From: an uncultured cyanobacterium
GTDB lineage: Bacteria; Cyanobacteriota; Cyanobacteriia; Cyanobacteriales; Cyanobacteriaceae
Assembly: GCA_963749915.1 (NCBI GenBank)
Contig: CAVVOP010000009.1
Location: forward strand, 27,347 to 91,346
DNA: 64,000 nt
Direction: 5' to 3'
Shown here one piece after another: positions 9,206 through 55,999 of this stretch. The notes beneath the pieces are model-generated. The model was not told the origin of the DNA and searched no databases. It worked only from the letters and a program-made list of their open reading frames with translations. Each line of letters starts with the position of its first letter. Positions within the stretch are counted from its first letter, which is position 1. A program made the position numbers and the translations under genes.

Positions 9206-10795
9206 TCAGAGTAAAGCTATGAGAGCCTCCTCCCCATGCTTATTAACATACTGCTGTAACAGATTCAGAGTAGTAATAGATAGATTTAAAGCCTTAAAAG
9301 TAGGTGTAGTATCTTCTAAATCAAGCAATTTAGTAGGATTATCAGGATGAGTTTTTAAGATCCCCTTTTCTACCAAGAATCGGGAAAAAGCACCATTGAG
9401 AGTAGGAGTACTCAATCTCTTCTGATATATTTGTAATCCTTTATATACTTCTTCCTCAACCTCAACATACCATTTACAACCTTGTCCGGCTTTATAATTA
9501 AGCCCTTCTTTAATCAGAATTTCTTTCTTCTGAGGTTTTTGTGGTTTAGATAATGATGGTAAATCTAAATCTTGGAGTCGGATTAACTCTCGTTGGTCAT
9601 TATCAAAAGCAACCACAAGAGAATTAACAGAGCTAATCTGGGTAACAACTCCTTCATTCCCACCAAAATAATGATTATCTTTTACTTTGACGCGATCTCC
9701 AATGGATAAGGGATTAGTTATTTTCTGTTTTCCTTTAGTGGGTTTGATATTAGCAGAATCTATTAATTCAGCATCAGTAACGGTAGAGGGAACGGGCAAC
9801 GGGGAACTGGGAACGGTGTTTTCTTCTTCCTTTACCTCATCTTCCTTAAGTTGTTCAGAAATTATCTGATTATCTTCTATTGGTGTTAATGATTCTGATG
9901 ATTTATCTTTACCGATATTGGTGGTGTCCTGAATATAGGTTTTTCCTCCTCGTTTTACTTTCCTCTGATTGTTAAGATTTGTATCTGCGGAATTTCCGCA
10001 GATAGATTCTCGTAAATTCCGCACAGTTTTTTCGTTAACACCACAGCGACGGGCTATTTCTCGATTGCTCCACTGACTCCATTCAGAATCTTCAAGTAGA
10101 GTCATTACCGCTTTTCGTTTATCAGCATTACTACGGCGAAGTCCATGAGTAGCATTAACCGTCAGAGAAAATAATAAAGCTTCTCGGTAAGTACCAGATT
10201 TTTCGATAAAGGGTAATTCAGTTATTCCTGCTTGTTTTGCCGCTTCTACACGGTGGAATCCATCTACCAAATAATAACGGGGAGTGGGCAACGGGCAATG
10301 GGCAGTGGTGGTTAATTCAGAATTATGAGAATCAAATAATTGATTATTGTCACTACTCCCTACTCCCTGTTCTCCACTCCCTTCTTCTCTCCAGACAGTA
10401 ATGGGAGGAAGTTCTGTACCTTCAGAATAAGCATTAGCATAATCATCCACCACAGAATTATTAATCTCTACCCTCTGCTGTAGATTGACATCAATGGTAA
10501 GTAAAGTTAGCTTAATCCTTCCTGATACTTCCTGAATACTATCTGAGATCGCCATAGGTTTATTAACCTTCTGAAGACTGTTAGCCAGTTCGGGGCTTGG
10601 AACATTAGAACTATCCCAATTAACCCAAAACTGCAACATCTTCCCGTTATTAACATGAATATCAGTTACTTTGCCGACATTCCCCCTGGCAAATACCCAA
10701 TCGCCGATTCCAATATTATTAGGATTGAGAGAAAAGTCAGGATAATTTTTAGATTTAAGCATAGTGACCTCCTCCCATAATTTGTCTGAAAGCAT
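9206..10795 (-). CDS. ParB/Srx-domain protein with HTH and KOW-like domain (copy 1)
   Basis: LVDGFHRVEAA ParB motif; NATHGLRRSNADKRKAV; HTH SNREIARRCGVNEKTVRNLR; probable start 10762 after GGAGGAGG. Confidence 0.85.
   Translation of the reverse strand: MLSDKLWEEVTMLKSKNYPDFSLNPNNIGIGDWVFARGNVGKVTDIHVNNGKMLQFWVNWDSSNVPSPELANSLQKVNKPMAISDSIQEVSGRIKLTLLTIDVNLQQRVEINNSVVDDYANAYSEGTELPPITVWREEGSGEQGVGSSDNNQLFDSHNSELTTTAHCPLPTPRYYLVDGFHRVEAAKQAGITELPFIEKSGTYREALLFSLTVNATHGLRRSNADKRKAVMTLLEDSEWSQWSNREIARRCGVNEKTVRNLRESICGNSADTNLNNQRKVKRGGKTYIQDTTNIGKDKSSESLTPIEDNQIISEQLKEDEVKEEENTVPSSPLPVPSTVTDAELIDSANIKPTKGKQKITNPLSIGDRVKVKDNHYFGGNEGVVTQISSVNSLVVAFDNDQRELIRLQDLDLPSLSKPQKPQKKEILIKEGLNYKAGQGCKWYVEVEEEVYKGLQIYQKRLSTPTLNGAFSRFLVEKGILKTHPDNPTKLLDLEDTTPTFKALNLSITTLNLLQQYVNKHGEEALIALL
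9982..10004. promoter_or_regulatory. Intragenic palindrome, candidate parS-like/operator site (allele 1)
   Basis: TATCTGCGGAA-T-TTCCGCAGATA, perfect 11-bp arms immediately after the HTH codons. Confidence 0.55.
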
Positions 10796-11994
10796 TTATC
10801 AAACCTAGTGCTTGAGGATTTTCTGGTATTGTTGTTTCTGATTGTTTAACATAATACTGTTCGTACCATCGATAAAATACTGTCCTTAAATTTCTGGTAT
10901 AACCTAAGCTATTATCATCAGTAAAGATGTAATCAACACGGCAATTTTTAGCCCTGGTCAACCATAAATCAAAACAAGGTAGTTTATCCTTCCAGGAGAT
11001 TTTCTCCCATGCTATTTGTTCTAGGCTTCGGCTTTTAACTCGGTATTCGTCAATGAGGTTATCAAAATATTCTGACCCCGTGGAGTTGGGGTTATTCTTT
11101 CCTGTTTTCCATTGCTGATACTCTAACCATAATCTTTCGAGGATGCGATTGCCCGTTGTTTTATCATTAGTGAGGAGGTATCGCTTAATATCTCTCGCTT
11201 TTGGCAATTTGCCCTGACAATATTTGATAAACTCCTCATTTTCTAATCTCTCATCTTCTTCTGAGGGAGTAGGTAGTAGGGAGTAGGGAGTAGTATTTTC
11301 TCTCAACACCCCGTTCCCAGTTCCCCGTTCCCAGTTCCCCGTTCTCCGTTCTCCGTTCCCCGTTCCCTGTTCCCCATTCCCCGTTGCCTTGAATTGTTAT
11401 TCTCTCTTCTTGTATATCTTGTATATCTTCCATCTTTCTATTATCTTTCAATCTTTCTGATTGATCTGATAAGTCTGAATTAGTCTGAATAGTCTGAGAG
11501 AGATTAGAATCAAGTTCTGGCAATGGTTCTGGCGATCGATTTTGCCGGATCTGAGAATTTTTTGCCGGATCTGATAATTTATTCTCGGATCTGAGAATTT
11601 TTTGCCGGATCTGATAATTTATTCTCGGATCTGATAATTCAGTTTCAGGACTATTAATGGGGGCTGGTTCTGATAATGTTTGCCCAGATTTGGAGATCCA
11701 TTCAATTAGCAGTTTGCCTGATTTAATCAAAATCAACCCTAATTTCTTGAGTTGAGCGACTGCTTTATAAATACTGCTCTCTGGTATATTCCAAGAAAGG
11801 GCGAATTCTTTGGGATTAACTTCTACTGGGCGGTCACAAAATGGATTTTCATACCGCAGTGCTAGGTGGACAAAAGCAGTATTGTTGATGAGCTTGGCTT
11901 TTCGTAGAGCAATTAACTCATCTTTTTGTAAAGGATAAAATTCTCCTTGTAGTTTGTTATTGCTTCTTTGAGGGGTGGGAATATTAAATGTCAT
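10755..11994 (-). pseudogene. Putative replication initiator (N-terminal HTH), frameshifted near 11310 (copy 1)
   Basis: HTH FALSWNIPESSIYKAVAQLKKLG; internal 20-bp repeats; copy 2 reads through the junction, copy 1 has GAACGGGGTG vs GAAGGGGTG. Confidence 0.65.
11539..11638. repeat. Five 20-bp tandem iteron-like repeats in rep copy 1
   Basis: Units ATT(A/C)TCAGATCCG(AGAAT/GCAAA)AA on the minus strand, each containing GATC. Confidence 0.8.
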
Positions 11995-11996
11995 AA

Positions 11997-12107
11997 TTAC
12001 ACCTCCTCTTCTGCGGTAATAAGAGCCAAGGCGATGCAATTTTGTTGATTGGCAATGTTAACCTTTTCCCATAAATCTTCGGTTAACATGAAAAATCTTT
12101 CATTCAT
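11997..12107 (-). CDS. 36-aa leader ORF ending 2 nt before the rep ATG
   Basis: MNERFFMLTEDLWEKVNIANQQNCIALALITAEEEV*; contains the rep GGAGG RBS. Confidence 0.45.
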   Translation of the reverse strand: MNERFFMLTEDLWEKVNIANQQNCIALALITAEEEV

Positions 12108-12442: not shown

Positions 12443-12784
12443 ATGGATAAAAGAGAAAGAAATTTATCAAATCTTTTACTTAGATTGAAAGATAATGAGA
12501 GTGAGAGAAAATTAGCTCAGAATATTGGAGTAAGCCAATATGCTATTAATTGTTGGTTAAATAATAAGCATTTTCCTGATACTAAGAATCTGAAAAAAAT
12601 AGCTGATTACATGGATATATCCATCGATCAATTATTATCTCAATTAAATGAAGAAGAAGCCTATAAATTAGAAGAGATAAAGACTGCACAAGGAATATTC
12701 AATTCTATTATTCTAAATCTGTCTCTTAAAGAAAAGCTCATCTTAATTAAACTTATAGCTAATAACGTTGAAGAAAATCTGTAA
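12443..12784 (+). CDS. XRE-family HTH regulator, divergent from rep
   Basis: SERKLAQNIGVSQYAINCWLNNKHFP...LKKIADYMDISIDQL. Confidence 0.85.
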   Translation: MDKRERNLSNLLLRLKDNESERKLAQNIGVSQYAINCWLNNKHFPDTKNLKKIADYMDISIDQLLSQLNEEEAYKLEEIKTAQGIFNSIILNLSLKEKLILIKLIANNVEENL

Positions 12785-13278: not shown

Positions 13279-14801
13279 CTCTAGTTTCCGCTAAAATGAG
13301 AGCAAGAAGTTAGCAAAAGTGCGATGACTAGATTCGGGGTAAGATTCTAGTTCATAATATTAGATAGCCAAACAAATTCCCAGAGAGGAGTGTATGCCAA
13401 TTGCTATCGAACAAACTCTACAAGCTTTACAATTTATTGTACAAACTGTACCAGTGGGAACGAATCTGGCTCTGATACATCTGATGTGGAGTATCCTGAA
13501 TGGCTCATTTCTGGGTAGTCGAGGAGCAATCTTTCCTGCTCTACAAGAGAATGGCTTCTCCCCGGAGGAGATTAGACGCAGTTGGCAAGCAATGCGTTAT
13601 GGGGCTTGGAATATCGATAATTTGTTACATTCATGGCGTGACTATGTCAAGCAACAAGGGCAATGGCAAGTCCATGAGTATGAAGGATATAGACCCCTGG
13701 CAGTGGATTTAACTGCCTTTTGGCGTTTGCGTTTAAAAGGATGGATGGGCAAATATTTCAACGGCATAGCGAATAAAATGCTCAAAGGGATTGGTTTTGC
13801 CTTGGTGGTGGAAGTCGGACAGTTGGCAGGTGAGCGCCTGCCCATACTGCGAAAAATTCTGCGAGCTGATGCCACTGAGCGTAGCCAGAAACAACTAAAG
13901 CTCAAAGCTTTGAGCTGGGTGGGGGAGAATCTGGCCGAAAATGAAGTCCTCATATTCGACGCGGGAGCACATATCAGTGAGTTAAAGTCAGCCTCGATCA
14001 AACGCTATGTAATTCGTCTAGCAAGCAATTGTACTACTCGTCGTAATCAGCTACCGGACTATTCAGGTCAAGGGCGGCGACCTGAGTACGGCCAACTAGT
14101 GAGACCGCTGCCGCGCCAACGAAAAGGTCAAACGATTGAGGCAACGGAGCCAGACTTGGAGACTTCCTTTGAATTAGACGGTCGCACGATTCGTGCCCAA
14201 AGCTGGCATAATTTGGTCCTTTCAAACTTGAAAGTTGACCCATCTCATCAGACTTTTTCCATCTGGGTCTTTTTTGACCCCCTCTACAACGATCCCCTGG
14301 TTTTGGCAACTGATCTGTGTTTACAACCTTTGAGTCTGTTCCACTTCTATCAAGATCGTTGGCCGGTGGAGCAGGTGCCTTTGGTAGCCAAGCAAATGTT
14401 GGGATTACACTGCCAATTCGTTTTTGCTCCAGAAAGTTGCCAACGTCTGCCGGAGCTGGCAATGTTAGTCGGCAATATTCTCAGTTACCTGGCACTGGTG
14501 TTGCCTCCCATCCCCACAGGCTTCTGGGACCGCCGCCCACAAAAAACGACCGGACGTTTGCGTCGGGTCTTAGCTCGGTCTGAGTTTCCCAAAGTTGCCC
14601 TAAACAATGGGCAAATCCGAAAAAAGAATTCTGTGACGGCTCATTTGCCCAAAGGCATCGCTGCTCATCGACGGCAAAAACGACCACAAATGGAGACCTC
14701 GATCGCTGCTTGAATCAAGTAAAATAGTAAATAAAAGGTGTTTGTGCTTCAGACAATAGTCTGGGCTGATTTTCTCATTCCAGATTTAGCGGAAAGTAAA
14801 G
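13279..14801 (+). mobile_element. Complete insertion sequence (DDE, IS701/IS4-like)
   Basis: TIR CTCTAGTTTCCGCTAAA / CTTTACTTTCCGCTAAA (15/17); 5-bp TSD TTCTA at 13274-13278 and 14802-14806. Confidence 0.9.
13394..14713 (+). CDS. DDE transposase
   Basis: LAVDLT, IFDAG, YQDRWPVEQ...KQMLG motifs. Confidence 0.88.
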   Translation: MPIAIEQTLQALQFIVQTVPVGTNLALIHLMWSILNGSFLGSRGAIFPALQENGFSPEEIRRSWQAMRYGAWNIDNLLHSWRDYVKQQGQWQVHEYEGYRPLAVDLTAFWRLRLKGWMGKYFNGIANKMLKGIGFALVVEVGQLAGERLPILRKILRADATERSQKQLKLKALSWVGENLAENEVLIFDAGAHISELKSASIKRYVIRLASNCTTRRNQLPDYSGQGRRPEYGQLVRPLPRQRKGQTIEATEPDLETSFELDGRTIRAQSWHNLVLSNLKVDPSHQTFSIWVFFDPLYNDPLVLATDLCLQPLSLFHFYQDRWPVEQVPLVAKQMLGLHCQFVFAPESCQRLPELAMLVGNILSYLALVLPPIPTGFWDRRPQKTTGRLRRVLARSEFPKVALNNGQIRKKNSVTAHLPKGIAAHRRQKRPQMETSIAA

Positions 14802-15838: not shown

Positions 15839-16019
15839 TAGGGTTTGTGCAACCAGGTGCAACTTGAGGTTAAAACGCTTTATTTATAAGTGTTTCAGCC
15901 TTTGACTTTTTTCTCTTGTATTAAATTTGTGTTTTATAAGATTTTAACGAAATAATAATGGTTTCAGCCCTTTTTATCTAGCTTTTTATGGCTTACTGCA
16001 CCTCGTTACAAGAACCCTA
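15839..16019. mobile_element. ~180-bp MITE (family shared with 60893-61072)
   Basis: TIR TAGGGTTTGTGCAACCAGGTGCA / TAGGGTTCTTGTAACGAGGTGCA; internal GTTTCAG motifs. Confidence 0.75.
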
Positions 16020-16942
16020 TGTTCGGGCCCATTAATAGTCCTGAAACTGAATTATCAGATCCGAGAATAAATTATCAGATCCGGCAAAAAATTCTCAGAT
16101 CCGAGAATAAATTATCAGATCCGGCAAAAAATTCTCAGATCCGGCAAAATCGATCGCCAGAACCATTGCCAGAACTTGATTCTAATCTCTCTCAGACTAT
16201 CCAGACTAATTCAGACTTATCAGATCAATCAGAAAGATTGAAAGATGATAGAAAGATGGAAGACTTACAAGATATACAAGATATACAAGAAGAGAGAATA
16301 ACAATTCAAGGCAACGGGGAATGGGGAACAGGGAACGGGGAACGGAGAACGGAGAACGGGGAACAGGGAACGGGGAACAGTGAAGGGGTGTTGAGAGAAA
16401 ATACTACTCCCTACTCCCTACTACCTACTCCCTCAGAAGAAGATGAAAGATTAGAAAATGAGGAGTTTATCAAATATTGTCAGGGCAAATTGCCAAAAGC
16501 GAGAGATATTAAGCGATACCTCCTCACTAATGATAAAACAACGGGCAATCGTATCCTCGAAAGATTATGGTTAGAGTATCAGCAATGGAAAACAGGAAAG
16601 AATAACCCCAACTCCACGGGGTCAGAATATTTTGATAACCTCATTGACGAATACCGACTTAAAAGCCGAAGCCTAGAACAAATAGCATGGGAGAAAATCT
16701 CCTGGAAGGATAAACTACCTTGTTTTGATTTATGGTTGACCAGGGCTAAAAATTGCCGTGTTGATTACATCTTTACTGATGATAATAGCTTAGGTTACAC
16801 CAGAAATTTAAGGACAGTATTTTATCGATGGTACGAACAGTATTATGTTAAACAATCAGAAACAACAATACCAGAAAATCCTCAAGCACTAGGTTTGATA
16901 AATGCTTTCCGGCAAATTATGGGAGGAGGTCACTATGCTTAA
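16019..16942 (+). pseudogene. 5'-truncated rep copy 2 (in frame, no HTH; ATG supplied by the MITE end)
   Basis: Near-identical inverted copy of 10755-11660 starting at PINSPETELS. Confidence 0.75.
16051..16150. repeat. Five 20-bp iteron-like repeats in rep copy 2
   Basis: ATTATCAGATCCGAGAATAA / ATTATCAGATCCGGCAAAAA units. Confidence 0.8.
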
Positions 16943-18542
16943 ATCTAAAAATTATCCTGACTTTTCTCTCAATCCTAATAATATTGGAATCGGCGATTGG
17001 GTATTTGCCAGGGGGAATGTCGGCAAAGTAACTGATATTCATGTTAATAACGGCAAGATGTTGCAGTTTTGGGTTAATTGGGATAGTTCTAATGTTCCTA
17101 GTCCTGAACTGGCTAACAATCTTCAGAAGGTTAATAAACCTATGGCGATCTCAGATAGCATTCAGGAAGTATCAGGAAGGATTAAGCTGACTTTACTTAC
17201 CATTGATGTCAACCTACAGCAGAGGGTAGAGATTAATAATTCTGTGGTGGATGATTATGCTAATGCTTATTCTGAAGGTACAGAACTTCCTCCTATAACT
17301 GTCTGGAGAGAAGAAGGGAAAAGGGAAGAGGGAATAGGGAGTAGTGACAATAATCAATTATTTGATTCTCATCATTCTGAATTAACCACCACTACCCACT
17401 GCCCACTGCCCACTCCTCGTTATTATTTGGTTGATGGTTTTCACCGAGTAGAAGCGGCGAAACAAGCAGGAATAACTGAATTACCCTTTATCGAAAAATC
17501 TGGTACTTATCGAGAAGCTTTATTGTTTTCTCTGACGGTTAATGCTACTCATGGACTTCGCCGTAGTAATGCTGATAAACGAAAAGCTGTCATGACTCTA
17601 CTTGAAGATTCTGAATGGAGTCAGTGGAGCGATCGGGAAATTGCTCGCCAATGTGGAGTTAGTCATCAGTTTGTCAACAATCTTCGTAAATCTATCTGTC
17701 AACCGTTGACAGATACAAATCTTAACAATTCGGATGAGTCTATCTGTCATTCGTTGACAGATACAAATCTTAACAATCAGAGAAAAGTCACACGAGGGGG
17801 AAAAACATATATTCAGGATACTACCAATATTGGTAAACCTAAGTCATCAGAATCATTAACACCAGTAGAAGATAATCAGATAATTTCTGAACAACTATCA
17901 GAAGATATAGAGGTCACAGATTTTCAGGAAAATAACCTTATCTATAATGCCCCGGTAGAAATAGATAATGGTAATACTACTGCTGAATTAATAGATTCTG
18001 CTAATATCAAACCCACTAAAGGAAAACAGAAAATAACTAATCCCTTATCTATAGGCGATCGAGTTAAGGTAAAAGATAATCATTATTTTGGTGGGCGTGA
18101 AGGAGTCGTTACCCAGATTAGTTCTCCTAGTTCTCTTGTGGTTGCTTTTGATAATGACCAACGAGAGTTAATCCGACTCCAAGATTTAGATTTACCATCA
18201 TTATCTAAACCACAAAAACCTCAAAAGAAAGAAATTCTGATTAAAGAAGGGCTTAATTATAAAGCCGGACAAGGTTGTAAATGGTATGTTGAGGTTGAGG
18301 AAGAAGATTATCGTCTCTTTCAAGAATATCAAAGACAAGTTAATGCTCCCACTATTCGCTCCTGTTTAGTCAGAGCTGTAGAGGGGCAAAAACAGGAAAA
18401 ATCACCGATTAAAACTGATGATTTACTGATTAATTTAAGTAGTAAAATTAGTTATCTGAATCAAGAACAAAGATTGTTGTTAGCTAAACAATTAATTGAA
18501 TCAGACCCAGATATTTTCAACAAAATCATCAAGGAAAAATAA
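16902..18542 (+). CDS. ParB/Srx-domain protein with HTH and KOW-like domain (copy 2)
   Basis: Paralog of 9206..10795; HTH SDREIARQCGVSHQFVNNLR; different C-terminus after WYVEVEEE. Confidence 0.85.
   Translation: MLSGKLWEEVTMLKSKNYPDFSLNPNNIGIGDWVFARGNVGKVTDIHVNNGKMLQFWVNWDSSNVPSPELANNLQKVNKPMAISDSIQEVSGRIKLTLLTIDVNLQQRVEINNSVVDDYANAYSEGTELPPITVWREEGKREEGIGSSDNNQLFDSHHSELTTTTHCPLPTPRYYLVDGFHRVEAAKQAGITELPFIEKSGTYREALLFSLTVNATHGLRRSNADKRKAVMTLLEDSEWSQWSDREIARQCGVSHQFVNNLRKSICQPLTDTNLNNSDESICHSLTDTNLNNQRKVTRGGKTYIQDTTNIGKPKSSESLTPVEDNQIISEQLSEDIEVTDFQENNLIYNAPVEIDNGNTTAELIDSANIKPTKGKQKITNPLSIGDRVKVKDNHYFGGREGVVTQISSPSSLVVAFDNDQRELIRLQDLDLPSLSKPQKPQKKEILIKEGLNYKAGQGCKWYVEVEEEDYRLFQEYQRQVNAPTIRSCLVRAVEGQKQEKSPIKTDDLLINLSSKISYLNQEQRLLLAKQLIESDPDIFNKIIKEK
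17693..17763. promoter_or_regulatory. Two intragenic palindromes, candidate parS-like/operator sites (allele 2)
   Basis: TATCTGTCAAC-C-GTTGACAGATA (17693-17715) and TATCTGTCATTCGTTGACAGATA (17741-17763). Confidence 0.55.
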
Positions 18543-24374: not shown

Positions 24375-25338
24375 ACCTCAGTTTTGGATAAGAAAACAGG
24401 CAGATAGTAAGCTGAATATAGCACACATCAAACTAACTACTGTCTTATGTTTAATTTAGATTATTTATTTTGTCATGTCGATGATTTCTGCCAACAATTT
24501 GAGCCTCAATGGCAAAACAAGCTCTTATTTCATGGAGCGGTCAGCCGTATTCGAGGGAAAAGTTTGTGTTTAAGTGAAATTATGACTATCCTGATTGCTT
24601 TTCACCAAAATCATTATCGTAATTTCAAACATTTTTACCTGAATCATGTTCAACAATATTGGTCGAATGCTTTTCCTAAACTTCCCAGTTATCAGCGATT
24701 TATTCAATGGGTTCCATCAACGATCATTCCTTTGTGTGTTTATCTTAAACATTGCTTTGGTAATTGTACTGGGATTAGTTTTATCGATTCGACTAAAATT
24801 CAAGTCTGTCATCATCGACGTATTTCACGCCATAAGGTCTTTCAGGATTTAGCCCAAAGAGGGAAAACCTCTGTGGACTGGTTTTTTGGATTTAAACTTC
24901 ATCTGGTTGTCAATGAACTGGGGGAAATTATCAATATGAGTTTAACTCCAGGTAATGTTGATGACCGTAAACCCGTCGTTGACCTTTTAAAAGAGCTTTG
25001 GGGAAAAGTCTTTGGCCATAGAGGTTATGTGTCACAAAAATTAGCGACCAAGCTACTGGAAGATTTTGGAATCGAGTTTTTTGCCAAACCTAAACGTAAC
25101 ATGAAGAACAAATTAATGAGACTTCATGACAAATTATTATCTCGCAAGGGATCGATTATAGAAACAATTAATGACCAATTAAAGAATATCTCACAAATAG
25201 AACATTCTCGTCATCGTTCACCAATAAATTTTTGTGTTAATCTATTATGTGGATTAATCGCATATTGTCACCAACCAAAGAAGCCAAGCCTTCGTCTGGA
25301 ATGGTTTTTACCTCAATCTGCTTAACCAAAACTGAGGT
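24375..25338 (+). mobile_element. IS982-family element
   Basis: TIR ACCTCAGTTTTGGATAAG / ACCTCAGTTTTGGTTAAG; no TSD evident. Confidence 0.9.
24447..25325 (+). CDS. IS982 transposase (GHRGY where GDRGY is expected)
   Basis: [32 protein letters not shown]. Confidence 0.9.
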
Positions 25339-42988: not shown

Positions 42989-44602
42989 CTACCCCTCATA
43001 GAGTCCAGATAAACTGGATTGGGATTGACGTAATTGGCGACGCACCACAAATTCCATTAAGGTAAAAACCCTTAAAGCAATCGTTAATAAAAACATCAAC
43101 CCTTTAATCTTATCTTCATCTCTAAAATAAATGGGTAAAGCAGATAAGCGACCTTTTTTAAAGCGATGAAATCCTCTTTCTGGTTGCCATTGTTCTTTAT
43201 AATCTGACACTGCTTCTGTCAAAGATAACCGTTCTAAGGAGGCATTAGTGACATATAACCGCCAACCTGCTATGGTTTTAAAAGACTCAATTTCGGAATT
43301 TAAACGACTGTAGTTAATAATTAATTGAGTTTCACGAACCCGACGATAAGAAGATGGCTCACTGCGACTGCCACGACCTTTATATACTTTATTGTAGCTT
43401 TGCTTTTTCTCAATTGAGTAAGTGATATACTTCGTTAATCCCTGTGTTTTCAGAGCTTCTCGTACCTTTTCCTCTAAGAGCTTCTCGTCTTTACCCGGTC
43501 TTTTTTGCAGAGATAATAATTTCTCTTCCCCTTTATTTAAACGATTTTCTAATCCTTTTATCTGACGAGAGGCCAAGGCATTTGATTTAACGACTAACCA
43601 TCTTTCATTCCACTGATAACGTTTTTTATTCTCTGGGTCAATCCAGATACTTCCTAAAGGAACTTCAAATCCTAATCCCATTTCTTTATCTTCTAATTCT
43701 TCTTCTTTTTCCACGATTTTAACGACTTCACTTGGGGGATTACTTACCCAATCAGCTAATAGTTTAGGGCGAGGTTGATTCATGGCCAAGGGAAAACAGT
43801 AAATTCCTCCTTCTGCTTGGATTTTTGCCCGATTCTCATAACTTGAGGCTTTTGAGTCTGCTAAATATAGGAAATCTTTTTTTCCGAGTATTTCTGTCAT
43901 TTTTCGCCATGTGGGTACATAATCCTTCTCATCCGTCTCATTTCCTGCCAAGGTCATTCCTAGTAAGGGCAGTCCTACTGGGTCTAATGTGGCCAACATT
44001 TGACGATATTGCCTTAAATCGGGTCGTTTATCTTTACTATATCCAAATTTTAACAGGGATGATTCTTCTTGAGCTTCTGAGATTTGATGATGTACTGAGA
44101 AACTTGTTGTATCACTTCGGCATTTTTCCGTGGGTAATTGATAAGCTTTGACCAGATATTGACATAATGATGTCTCTATCTGGCGTAAACTGTCTGATAA
44201 ACCTAATGTTCTTAATAAGTCTCCACAACGGTCATCGGTTGCCTCTTTATCTCTTATTTTCCATCCTGTTGTTCCTTCTAGACTTCTTTGATGTTCATTT
44301 ACCCATGTTTCTAAACAACACATTCTATGATCTCCTTCGCTCACGATATAGGTCAGCAATAATACGGCTAGTTCCCCATAGCTCAATCCTGTGCGATTTC
44401 CATGAGGCTTTTCCAGATTCTCATCTATCATTGATGCCACTTTCATTTGTTGCAACCAATGAATAATCACGGGGAGATCATCTATTCGCTCTGACTGTAT
44501 CTGTGTGGTAATTATTTTGACTCCTTAAACTTAAACCTTTACTACACAAGGATTTTAACCTTTTTTGTCCTCGATCACTTTTTCATTTAAGCGAACGGTG
44601 AG
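42989..44602 (-). mobile_element. IS1634-like element with 3'-truncated transposase
   Basis: ERIDDLP, RSDTT, FGYSKDKRPDLRQ, ADSK, YKEQWQPERGFHRFK; end CTCACCGTTCGC near 44602; ORF stops at LYEG. Confidence 0.8.
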
Positions 44603-55282: not shown

Positions 55283-55369
55283 TTTTGAGTTTTCCTTATT
55301 TGAGCTATTGCATATCTAGTATATACACGACTTGGCAAGTTATCGAAATTTAGATATTAAGTTTTATGG

Positions 55370-55876
55370 GCGATCGCTTGCGAGATAATAATTTGTCATG
55401 AAGTCTCATTAATTTGTTCTTCATGTTACGTTTAGGTTTGGCAAAAAACTCGATTCCAAAATCTTCCAGTAGCTTGGTCGCTAATTTTTGTGACACATAA
55501 CCTCTATGGCCAAAGACTTTTCCCCAAAGCTCTTTTAAAAGGTCAACGACGGGTTTACGGTCATCAACATTACCTGGAGTTAAACTCATATTGATAATTT
55601 CCCCCAGTTCATTGACAACCAGATGAAGTTTAAATCCAAAAAACCAGTCCACAGAGGTTTTCCCTCTTTGGGCTAAATCCTGAAAGACCTTATGGCGTGA
55701 AATACGTCGATGATGACAGACTTGAATTTTAGTCGAATCGATAAAACTAATCCCAGTACAATTACCAAAGCAATGTTTAAGATAAACACACAAAGGAATG
55801 ATCGTTGATGGAACCCATTGAATAAATCGCTGATAACTGGGAAGTTTAGGAAAAGCATTCGACCAATATTGTTGAA
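55370..55876 (-). mobile_element. Internal fragment of IS982
   Basis: Inverted, near-identical to ~24649-25154; one end at HIP1. Confidence 0.85.
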
Positions 55877-55999
55877 GAAGAATGAAGAATTAGTTTTGAG
55901 CCTTACTATACTATGGTGACGGTAATACGAGATTGCGGTTTTAAAGTTCAATCAACAAGATGACAGCGTTGCCGAAGGCACTGCGAAGCAGACCGCACT

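Follow-up and report, generated by a model that had tools for sequence, protein, structure and literature searches.

Two paralogous ParB-like genes in the window

The window, by which we mean the whole stretch of 64,000 nucleotides analysed here, carries two related genes of a cyanobacterial mobile element, copy A and copy B, which lie as inverted paralogs within an inverted duplication of 96% identity. Both encode orphan ParB-HTH proteins; in that of copy A, a ParB/Srx fold (approximately aa 94-222) is followed by the helix-turn-helix (HTH), a linker whose codons bear a palindromic site, a small beta domain and a C-terminal region predicted to dimerize. The features of the two copies and of the genes that accompany them are as follows:

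9206-10795, minus strand: copy A gene, an ORF of 529 aa
10010-10069, minus strand: HTH of copy A (S243-R262)
10016-10036, minus strand: recognition helix of copy A, NEKTVRN
10061-10063 and 10025-10036: codons of the specificity positions of copy A, R245 and N254, E255, K256, T257, respectively
9982-10004: site A, a perfect 23-bp palindrome with core half-sites CTGCGGA and a 3-bp spacer (9985-10001)
9356-9478, minus strand: strand-helix-helix region at the C-terminal side of copy A (aa 440-480), through which a homodimer is predicted to form
10755-12039, minus strand: O/DnaD-like initiator gene upstream of copy A, in two frames (11251-12039 and 10755-11309)
11540-11639: five 20-bp direct repeats, iteron-like, within the initiator gene of copy A; the same repeats lie at 16050-16149 for copy B
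12443-12784, plus strand: divergent gene for a cI/RstR-like HTH repressor
16019-16942, plus strand: initiator gene before copy B, 5'-truncated and lacking the winged-helix part
16902-18542, plus strand: copy B gene, 546 aa
17628-17687, plus strand: HTH of copy B, with the recognition helix SHQFVNN at 17661-17681
17693-17715: site B1, a perfect 23-bp palindrome with half-sites CTGTCAA and a 3-bp spacer
17741-17763: site B2, a variant second site (CTGTCAT / CTGTCAA)
17691 and 17739: starts of a 48-bp in-frame tandem duplication in copy B, which contains site B2

The two recognition helices are as an earlier, first-pass annotation of this DNA had described them. Its statement that the paralogs are near-identical on either side of the helix agrees with the ParB core, where A and B show no amino-acid difference in 69 codons and nine synonymous differences in 66, as opposed to eight amino-acid differences in the 21 HTH codons and eight synonymous differences in 13; it does not extend to the C-terminal tails, which differ from approximately 9455 on. 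It had also assigned one palindrome to each paralog beside the helix, which is correct for sites A and B1, but had overlooked the second site of copy B.

Domain structure of the encoded proteins

Both proteins match PHROG 1033, 'ParB-like partition protein' (E 4e-23). The Pfam search with the window proteins returned no ParB_N match and only weak HTH matches, NCBIfam gave a name to neither of the two ParB-like proteins, and sulfiredoxin (E 0.003) was the only match in a sequence search of the PDB. A structure model of residues 80-299 of copy A (pLDDT 85.5) resembles the structures of ParB, Noc and KorB: Foldseek matched it to the B. subtilis-type ParB 6sdk with E 8e-7, the comparison with Noc 7ng0 gave a Z of 12.8 and an rmsd of 1.9 over 97 residues, and the top fold match was KorB, with a Z of 13.0 and an rmsd of 7.3 over 159 residues. 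According to this model, the N-terminal fold of copies A and B is of the ParB/Srx type.

A DG.HR-type motif, corresponding to the GxxR of Box II, has been retained by 117 of 120 homologs. In place of the ENxxR of Box III, NxxHG is found in all 120, and an EN..R string occurs anywhere within the first 300 aa in only seven of them. A survey of orphan ParBs that tested 50 proteins (PMC12704722) describes Box III as frequently divergent among them and nucleotide specificity as not predictable from sequence; of the 28 ParB-fold proteins purified there, only 11 are reported to bind. Neither copies A and B nor the paralog C1 (see below) contain the ParA-binding motif, and it is likewise missing in the N-terminal 100 aa of all 120 homologs. 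The C-terminal strand-helix-helix region is ribbon-helix-helix-like by inspection, and two copies of the C-terminal 171 residues gave a predicted dimer score of 0.42, against 0.00 for the best control, with pLDDT of 60-66; this score just reaches a mark that was met by 20 of 30 solved pairs and by one of 23 single chains, and at least 60% of the contacts were common to the prediction runs.

Palindromes in this genome

The pattern TATCTG-N11-CAGATA, with at most one mismatch, matches the window four times against 0.22 expected, and none of 100 shuffles reached four matches. The genome comprises 4.69 Mb in 34 contigs and contains only 63 perfect palindromes with arms of at least 10 bp and a loop of 0-1, five of which fall in the linkers of four genes of the copy A/B family. 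The search for further copies of the sites, which the first-pass annotation had recommended, found site A exactly once in the 4.69 Mb with up to one mismatch, and the site of C1 likewise once; no extra copies of either were found at promoters or across the replicon, and copies in the flanks were at chance level.

Further paralogs and their element context

Additional copies of the family are located on contigs C1, C10 (two, C10a and C10b), C11, C13, C15, C31 and C34, several of them broken. In C1 the helix SNRF is paired with the half-site CTGTGAA, in C10a the helix SQPF with two CTGATAA sites, and in C10b the helix SHTF with CTGGAAA/CTGGCAA, next to which an imperfect B-type site is also retained; no clear site was found in the broken C15 and C31 copies. 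A second site of different specificity occurs in some linkers of the family (L081, which is C10b, L324 and L311), perhaps left over from a previous cassette or serving as a docking point for the protein of a sibling.

Most copies are preceded by an O/DnaD-like gene that contains five repeats of 20 bp, and a divergent gene for a cI-like repressor is often present as well. The initiator, which in the C10 paralog is encoded by one ORF of 430 aa, exhibits a weak match to PHROG 186 (E 4e-4), and the Atlas look-alikes of the C10 copy are Phage_rep_O and HTH_36, at 0.94. The same initiator repeats are common to five paralogs (A, B, C1, C10b and C15), yet the helix-site pairs of A, B, C1 and C10b are different. 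The initiators of C10a and C13 have different N-terminal domains together with different repeat units in the linker, and it may be that the initiator and its linker repeats constitute a second unit of reader plus site, adjoining the first.

Both elements in the window look damaged, their initiators being split or truncated. Heptamer tandem repeats are found in frame in the initiator and in the ParB domain (window positions 11251-11394, 10279-10390 and 16310-16434), and the frame change in the initiator of copy A, which falls within such repeats, could be due to slippage or to an assembly error. The initiators of C1 and C10a are immediately preceded by a gene for a protein of 160 aa (L482:2839-3330 and L483:11091-11576); the gene product resembles by eye the annealing proteins of the Rad52/Sak type, matches no Pfam family, and could promote the exchange of cassettes.

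Probable exchange of helix and site

Comparison of copy A with C1 reveals neither synonymous (0 of 66) nor amino-acid (0 of 69) differences in the core, as against five of 11 and 10 of 21, respectively, in the HTH. The identity of A to B, C1, C10b and C15 drops abruptly at about 10066-10067, from ~99% to ~55%, which sets the 5' edge of the swapped tract at ~10066; identity is regained after ~80 bp between A and B and after ~290 bp between A and C1. This switch, in paralogs behind the same O-like initiator, points to recombination of a cassette. The identities of the encoded regions are mosaic in the same manner: compared with A, the relative P0023 has an identity of 65% in the core and 84% in the 50-residue cassette, whereas B and C1 reach 100% in the core and, in the cassette, 46% and 34%, respectively. 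In addition, contigs from the sediment runs, possibly of other organisms, join both flanks across other sequence and carry further alleles of the site. All four runs show a low summed contig depth over 9956-10063, from which nothing follows about expression, as contig depth cannot rank parts of one gene.

Recombination is the simplest reading of this mosaic, and helix and site have most probably been exchanged together as a block. Exchange as a unit, as postulated in the first-pass annotation, is strongly supported; the size of less than 100 bp that it gave for the unit applies to A and B, but not to A and C1. Since helix and site lie less than 100 bp apart, one recombination event changes both of them. 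New sites may furthermore arise with the help of copying from one arm to the other. The C-terminal tails (~9455 and below in A; 18300-18542 in B) are of two types, one in A, C1 and C10a and the other in B, C10b and C15, and the tail type is exchanged independently of the HTH cassette.

Distribution of the site in the family

A total of 481 loci were gathered, in which a profile gave 491 matches, 483 of them with an ungapped helix; 401 of these were unique, 393 had enough flanking sequence and 306 remained below 90% identity. In 147 of the 306 non-redundant relatives, the 180 nt that follow the HTH contain a palindrome with a score of at least 8. No such palindrome occurs in a 180-nt stretch of the ParB core of any of the 306, and after synonymous recoding, in ten rounds, 4.0 relatives on average and 8 at most had one. 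The remaining 159 relatives have no strong palindrome in the linker. The centres of the palindromes are mostly located 12-30 nt beyond the helix.

For the analysis of specificity we used the 139 of the 147 sites that have a 7-bp arm, T at position 2 (required by definition) and a spacer of 2-4 bp; eight were dropped. Seventy of the 139 come from viral contigs, 34 from genomes of at least eight phyla, 30 from metagenomes and five from cyanobacterial genomes or plasmids. They comprise 52 different 4-base cores and are read in all three frames. A single palindrome is present in 135 of the genes and more than one site in four, and in 100 loci one distant copy of the site was found, against 0.9 expected. 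Of the spacers, 105 measure 3 bp, 33 measure 2 bp and one measures 4 bp; spacer length covaries weakly (0.23 bits) with the residue in the turn, at the position of G252. Some relatives are annotated as streptomycin biosynthesis regulators, and relatives occur also on plasmids.

Correspondence between helix residues and site bases

The first-pass annotation had proposed that homologues be collected and the mutual information between helix and palindrome measured. In the 139 genes, the residues of the helix do covary with the palindrome of their own gene, and mutual information peaks at HTH residues only. Numbered on copy A, the peaks link R245 with base 3, E255 with base 4, K256 with bases 5 and 7, and N254, K256 and T257 with base 6. 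The individual rules are given below as the number of sites with the base among those with the residue, and among all others:

Arg245 and G3: 102/103; otherwise 5/36
Asp/Glu255 and C4: 38/40; otherwise 3/99
His255 and G4: 45/54; otherwise 8/85
Gln255 and A4: 9/15; otherwise 2/124
Lys/Arg256 and G5: 33/35; otherwise 22/104
Asp/Glu256 and C5: 17/19; otherwise 24/120
Phe/Tyr257 and A6: 48/58; otherwise 19/81

The usual contacts of direct readout are those of basic residues to G, of acidic ones to C and of Gln to A. The rules R245-G3, D/E255-C4, H255-G4, K/R256-G5 and D/E256-C5 are seen in 9-66 different residue backgrounds, and only one of the within-cluster contrasts runs opposite to the rules. 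By its spacing from the glycine of the turn, i.e. by motif rather than by superposition, position 255 aligns with R173 of ParB and Q158 of Noc, the residue whose switch changes G to A (PMC7383237).

Common descent was controlled for. When relatives with at least 70% core identity were left out, the nearest helix predicted 2.97 of the 4 core bases, while the nearest ParB core predicted 1.29 of 4 and a random choice 1.37 of 4. Independent pairs were taken from a FastTree phylogeny of 137 of the 139 cores, a poorly resolved tree with only 20 of 134 branches starred; they favoured the rules D/E-C (7.7 vs 0.0 of 9, p 0.008), H-G (10.3 vs 0.1 of 13, p 0.002) and K/R-G (6.3 vs 0.0 of 9, p 0.03), with too few pairs for F/Y-A (p 0.25). 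As helix and site travel together, a control on the cassette itself was added: for pairs of cassettes with less than 60% identity over the remaining HTH codons, the number of bases in common is 3.37 of 4 given the same residue triplet (n=143) and 1.06 of 4 given no shared residue (n=4293). Finally, the arms of 195 sites contain 48 A-C mismatches and 24 G-U mismatches, and in many cases base pairing continues across the spacer through the centre; the preponderance of A-C over G-U argues for a DNA site rather than an RNA stem.

The correspondence was also used to predict sites from helices. In held-out predictions with a naive code, the true site came top in its own locus in 92 of 123 cases, compared with 59 of 615 for a wrong helix. 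Among 145 loci outside the training set, the best predicted site fell in the linker in 57 (5.9 expected) and elsewhere in the other 88. A code trained on 137 sites, without the close paralogs in this genome, ranked the own site first in the whole 4.69-Mb genome for A, C1, C10a and C10b, i.e. for four of the five site-bearing paralogs, and 13th for B. For B the code predicts CTGGCAA, so its protein may cross-read the site of C10b. All these figures are somewhat optimistic, the code columns having been chosen on the same full set of 139 sites. In a few relatives without an intragenic palindrome, predicted sites were found upstream of the first start codon, at 307, 59, 54 and 541 bp in L357, L071, L073 and L028, respectively; the one at 307 bp lies on an Acaryochloris plasmid, and those at ~55 bp in two genomes of the same genus.

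The evidence that the HTH reads a palindromic site thus consists of covariation and held-out prediction. Judged from these comparisons of sequences, it is very likely that the linker palindrome serves as the binding site of the protein encoded there, with a dimer of the neighbouring HTH as its reader, and we have little doubt that each protein would bind its own palindrome directly.

Possible function of the site

In 57 long loci, the neighbours of the family gene are phage early or replication genes: a helicase family is represented in 29 loci, directly downstream in 17, a primase family in 10 and repressors in nine. We propose that a dimer of the HTH would read the palindrome in the linker codons of its own gene and that recombination would swap helix and site together, which would provide each co-resident element with a private ParB-type loading site, probably for the control of its own early replication operon. 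Taken as a whole, we regard this explanation as a fairly probable one. The protein is predicted to load at the site as a nucleotide-dependent clamp and to slide, and the loaded dimer or clamp may feed back on the repressor-initiator-parB operon or on the origin, 1.5-2.5 kb upstream; loading and sliding with such feedback, as opposed to other functions, is put forward tentatively. Autoregulation or element-specific loading is plausible, and because the predicted sites upstream of genes in relatives fit a self-regulatory role, a private loading site with feedback is favoured, which would act at a distance in the manner of KorB and BisD.

The site could alternatively be part of the replication origin, if the protein loaded at its own gene, much as lambda O binds iterons within the O gene, and recruited or licensed the neighbouring helicase-primase or initiator. 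This idea agrees with the helicase and primase genes in the vicinity, with the position of the family gene behind an O-like initiator in this genome, and with the precedent of an origin located within an initiator gene (PMC7466680). However, there is one site instead of an iteron array, with few genes (4/139) having more than one, and the elements in the window already possess an initiator with its own repeats, which stay constant while the cassette changes; we consider an origin function unlikely.

A partition or incompatibility unit, with parS inside parB and ParA supplied from elsewhere, is quite improbable. The ParB fold, the HTH and the predicted C-terminal dimer are all in keeping with it, as are the plasmid-borne relatives and the location of parS-359 in the parB gene of B. 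subtilis (PMC4442127), and the broken C15 paralog has a ParA-like gene ~3 kb upstream. Nevertheless, the ParA-binding motif was found in 0/120 homologs, most contexts are phage early regions, and neither site arrays nor several copies of a parS were found. A ParA-like gene is near only one of 66 site-bearing loci of at least 8 kb, with flanks of ~5 kb scanned by a small three-sequence profile, and none was found on the contig of the window; the profile replaced a Walker-A regular expression (0 ParA in 57 loci), which had missed the real ParA on contig C15. With the site essentially single-copy and ParA rare nearby, the new partition specificity suggested in the first-pass annotation is poorly supported.

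Still less probable is the marking of self DNA, by which the clamp, loaded at its own gene, would carry a methylase or another effector in cis along the element. With a unique intragenic site, the activity would indeed be confined to the encoding element, and fusions to a Dam, MT-A70 or N6_N4 methylase domain are present in seven of the 30 full-length relatives scanned; on the other hand, the other 23 show none and the proteins in the window are without a methylase domain. As for the palindrome being a mere mutational by-product or an RNA hairpin, matched to the helix by linkage of a few inherited blocks, helix and site do lie close together and move together, and template switching at quasi-palindromes can symmetrise arms, but the rules hold between dissimilar cassettes and across offsets and frames, which rules out pure linkage, and the mismatch types, opposite to those expected from selection for an RNA stem, together with pairing through the centre rule out the hairpin, so that the absence of binding is hardly credible.

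Relation to known systems

The proposed private loading site has counterparts among several characterized systems. It resembles ParB-parS and Noc-NBS in the combination of a ParB fold and an HTH acting on a short palindrome, and the main switch residue lines up by motif (PMC7383237), but it is unlike them in that the sites described there are conserved and present in several copies, with ParA as the partner of ParB, whereas here the site is essentially single, has a fixed place after the HTH and changes between paralogs of identical core. B. subtilis parS-359 (PMC4442127) is likewise a site inside the gene of its own binder. KorB-OB of RK2 (PMC11790492) and BisD-bisS of ICEclc (PMC12409273) are likewise ParB clamps of the orphan type, which are loaded at palindromes and control genes at a distance; bisS sites also lie inside coding genes, although other ones (inrR and ssb) than bisD, and the available text on BisD-bisS describes no swappable unit of helix and site. 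No KorA- or BisC-like partner was identified for the proteins of the window.

Lambdoid O (PMC7466680) shares with the present family a reader and its site in one gene, a linker that follows the DNA-binding domain and a phage replication module; unlike it, O binds several direct-repeat iterons at the origin, whereas here a ParB-fold protein is accompanied by one palindrome and no iteron array lies in its own gene, the O-like gene with repeats being a separate neighbouring unit. Another point of comparison is StrR, which may also have a site within strR. Some relatives are annotated as regulators of this type, and StrR binds an inverted repeat (PMC8306873), but the spacer of its consensus is 11 bp, compared with 2-3 bp here.

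The first-pass annotation did not recognize a described system, and we have found no paper describing a variable helix-plus-site cassette; a site inside the gene of its binder does have precedents (parS-359 and the lambda origin in O). The available text of PMC7022226, PMC13370423 and PMC8306873 contains nothing on such a cassette, and neither 'palindrom' nor 'inverted repeat' occurs in the main text of the orphan ParB survey (PMC12704722).

A broader statement has about even chances of being true: a widespread family of ParB clamps from phages and mobile elements would address its own DNA by a self-encoded barcode, i.e. a freely recombining cassette of ~80-300 bp with the helix and its single target, in more than 50 specificities and with a readable residue-to-base code. 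If so, co-resident elements with identical replication genes could tell their own DNA from that of a sibling, and the family would amount to a natural library of orthogonal ParB-parS pairs, of possible use in the labelling of DNA loci. By what path the specificities of a DNA-binding protein and of its target can shift in step, with no dead intermediate, is a long-standing question. For ParB and Noc, one specificity switch has been mapped by crystal structures and a mutant library (PMC7383237); here, at least 52 site cores are paired with helices in one family, and a simple route of switching is offered. The code yields exact and cheap predictions for binding tests, and PHROG 1033, an uncharacterised phage family, gains its first likely target.

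Other genes in the window

Transposase-like genes are found at 13394-14713, 24447-25325 and 42989-44470, with 24615-25163 corresponding to 55362-55910, and one such gene separates the repressor from the truncated initiator that belongs to copy B. At 703-2251 lies a gene related to photolyases (judged by eye from the translation) in two overlapping frames, with a possible frameshift or assembly error. The region 29100-55300 contains repeated genes for sulfatases and formylglycine-enzyme-like proteins, duplicated ORFs of 190 aa and an AraC regulator.
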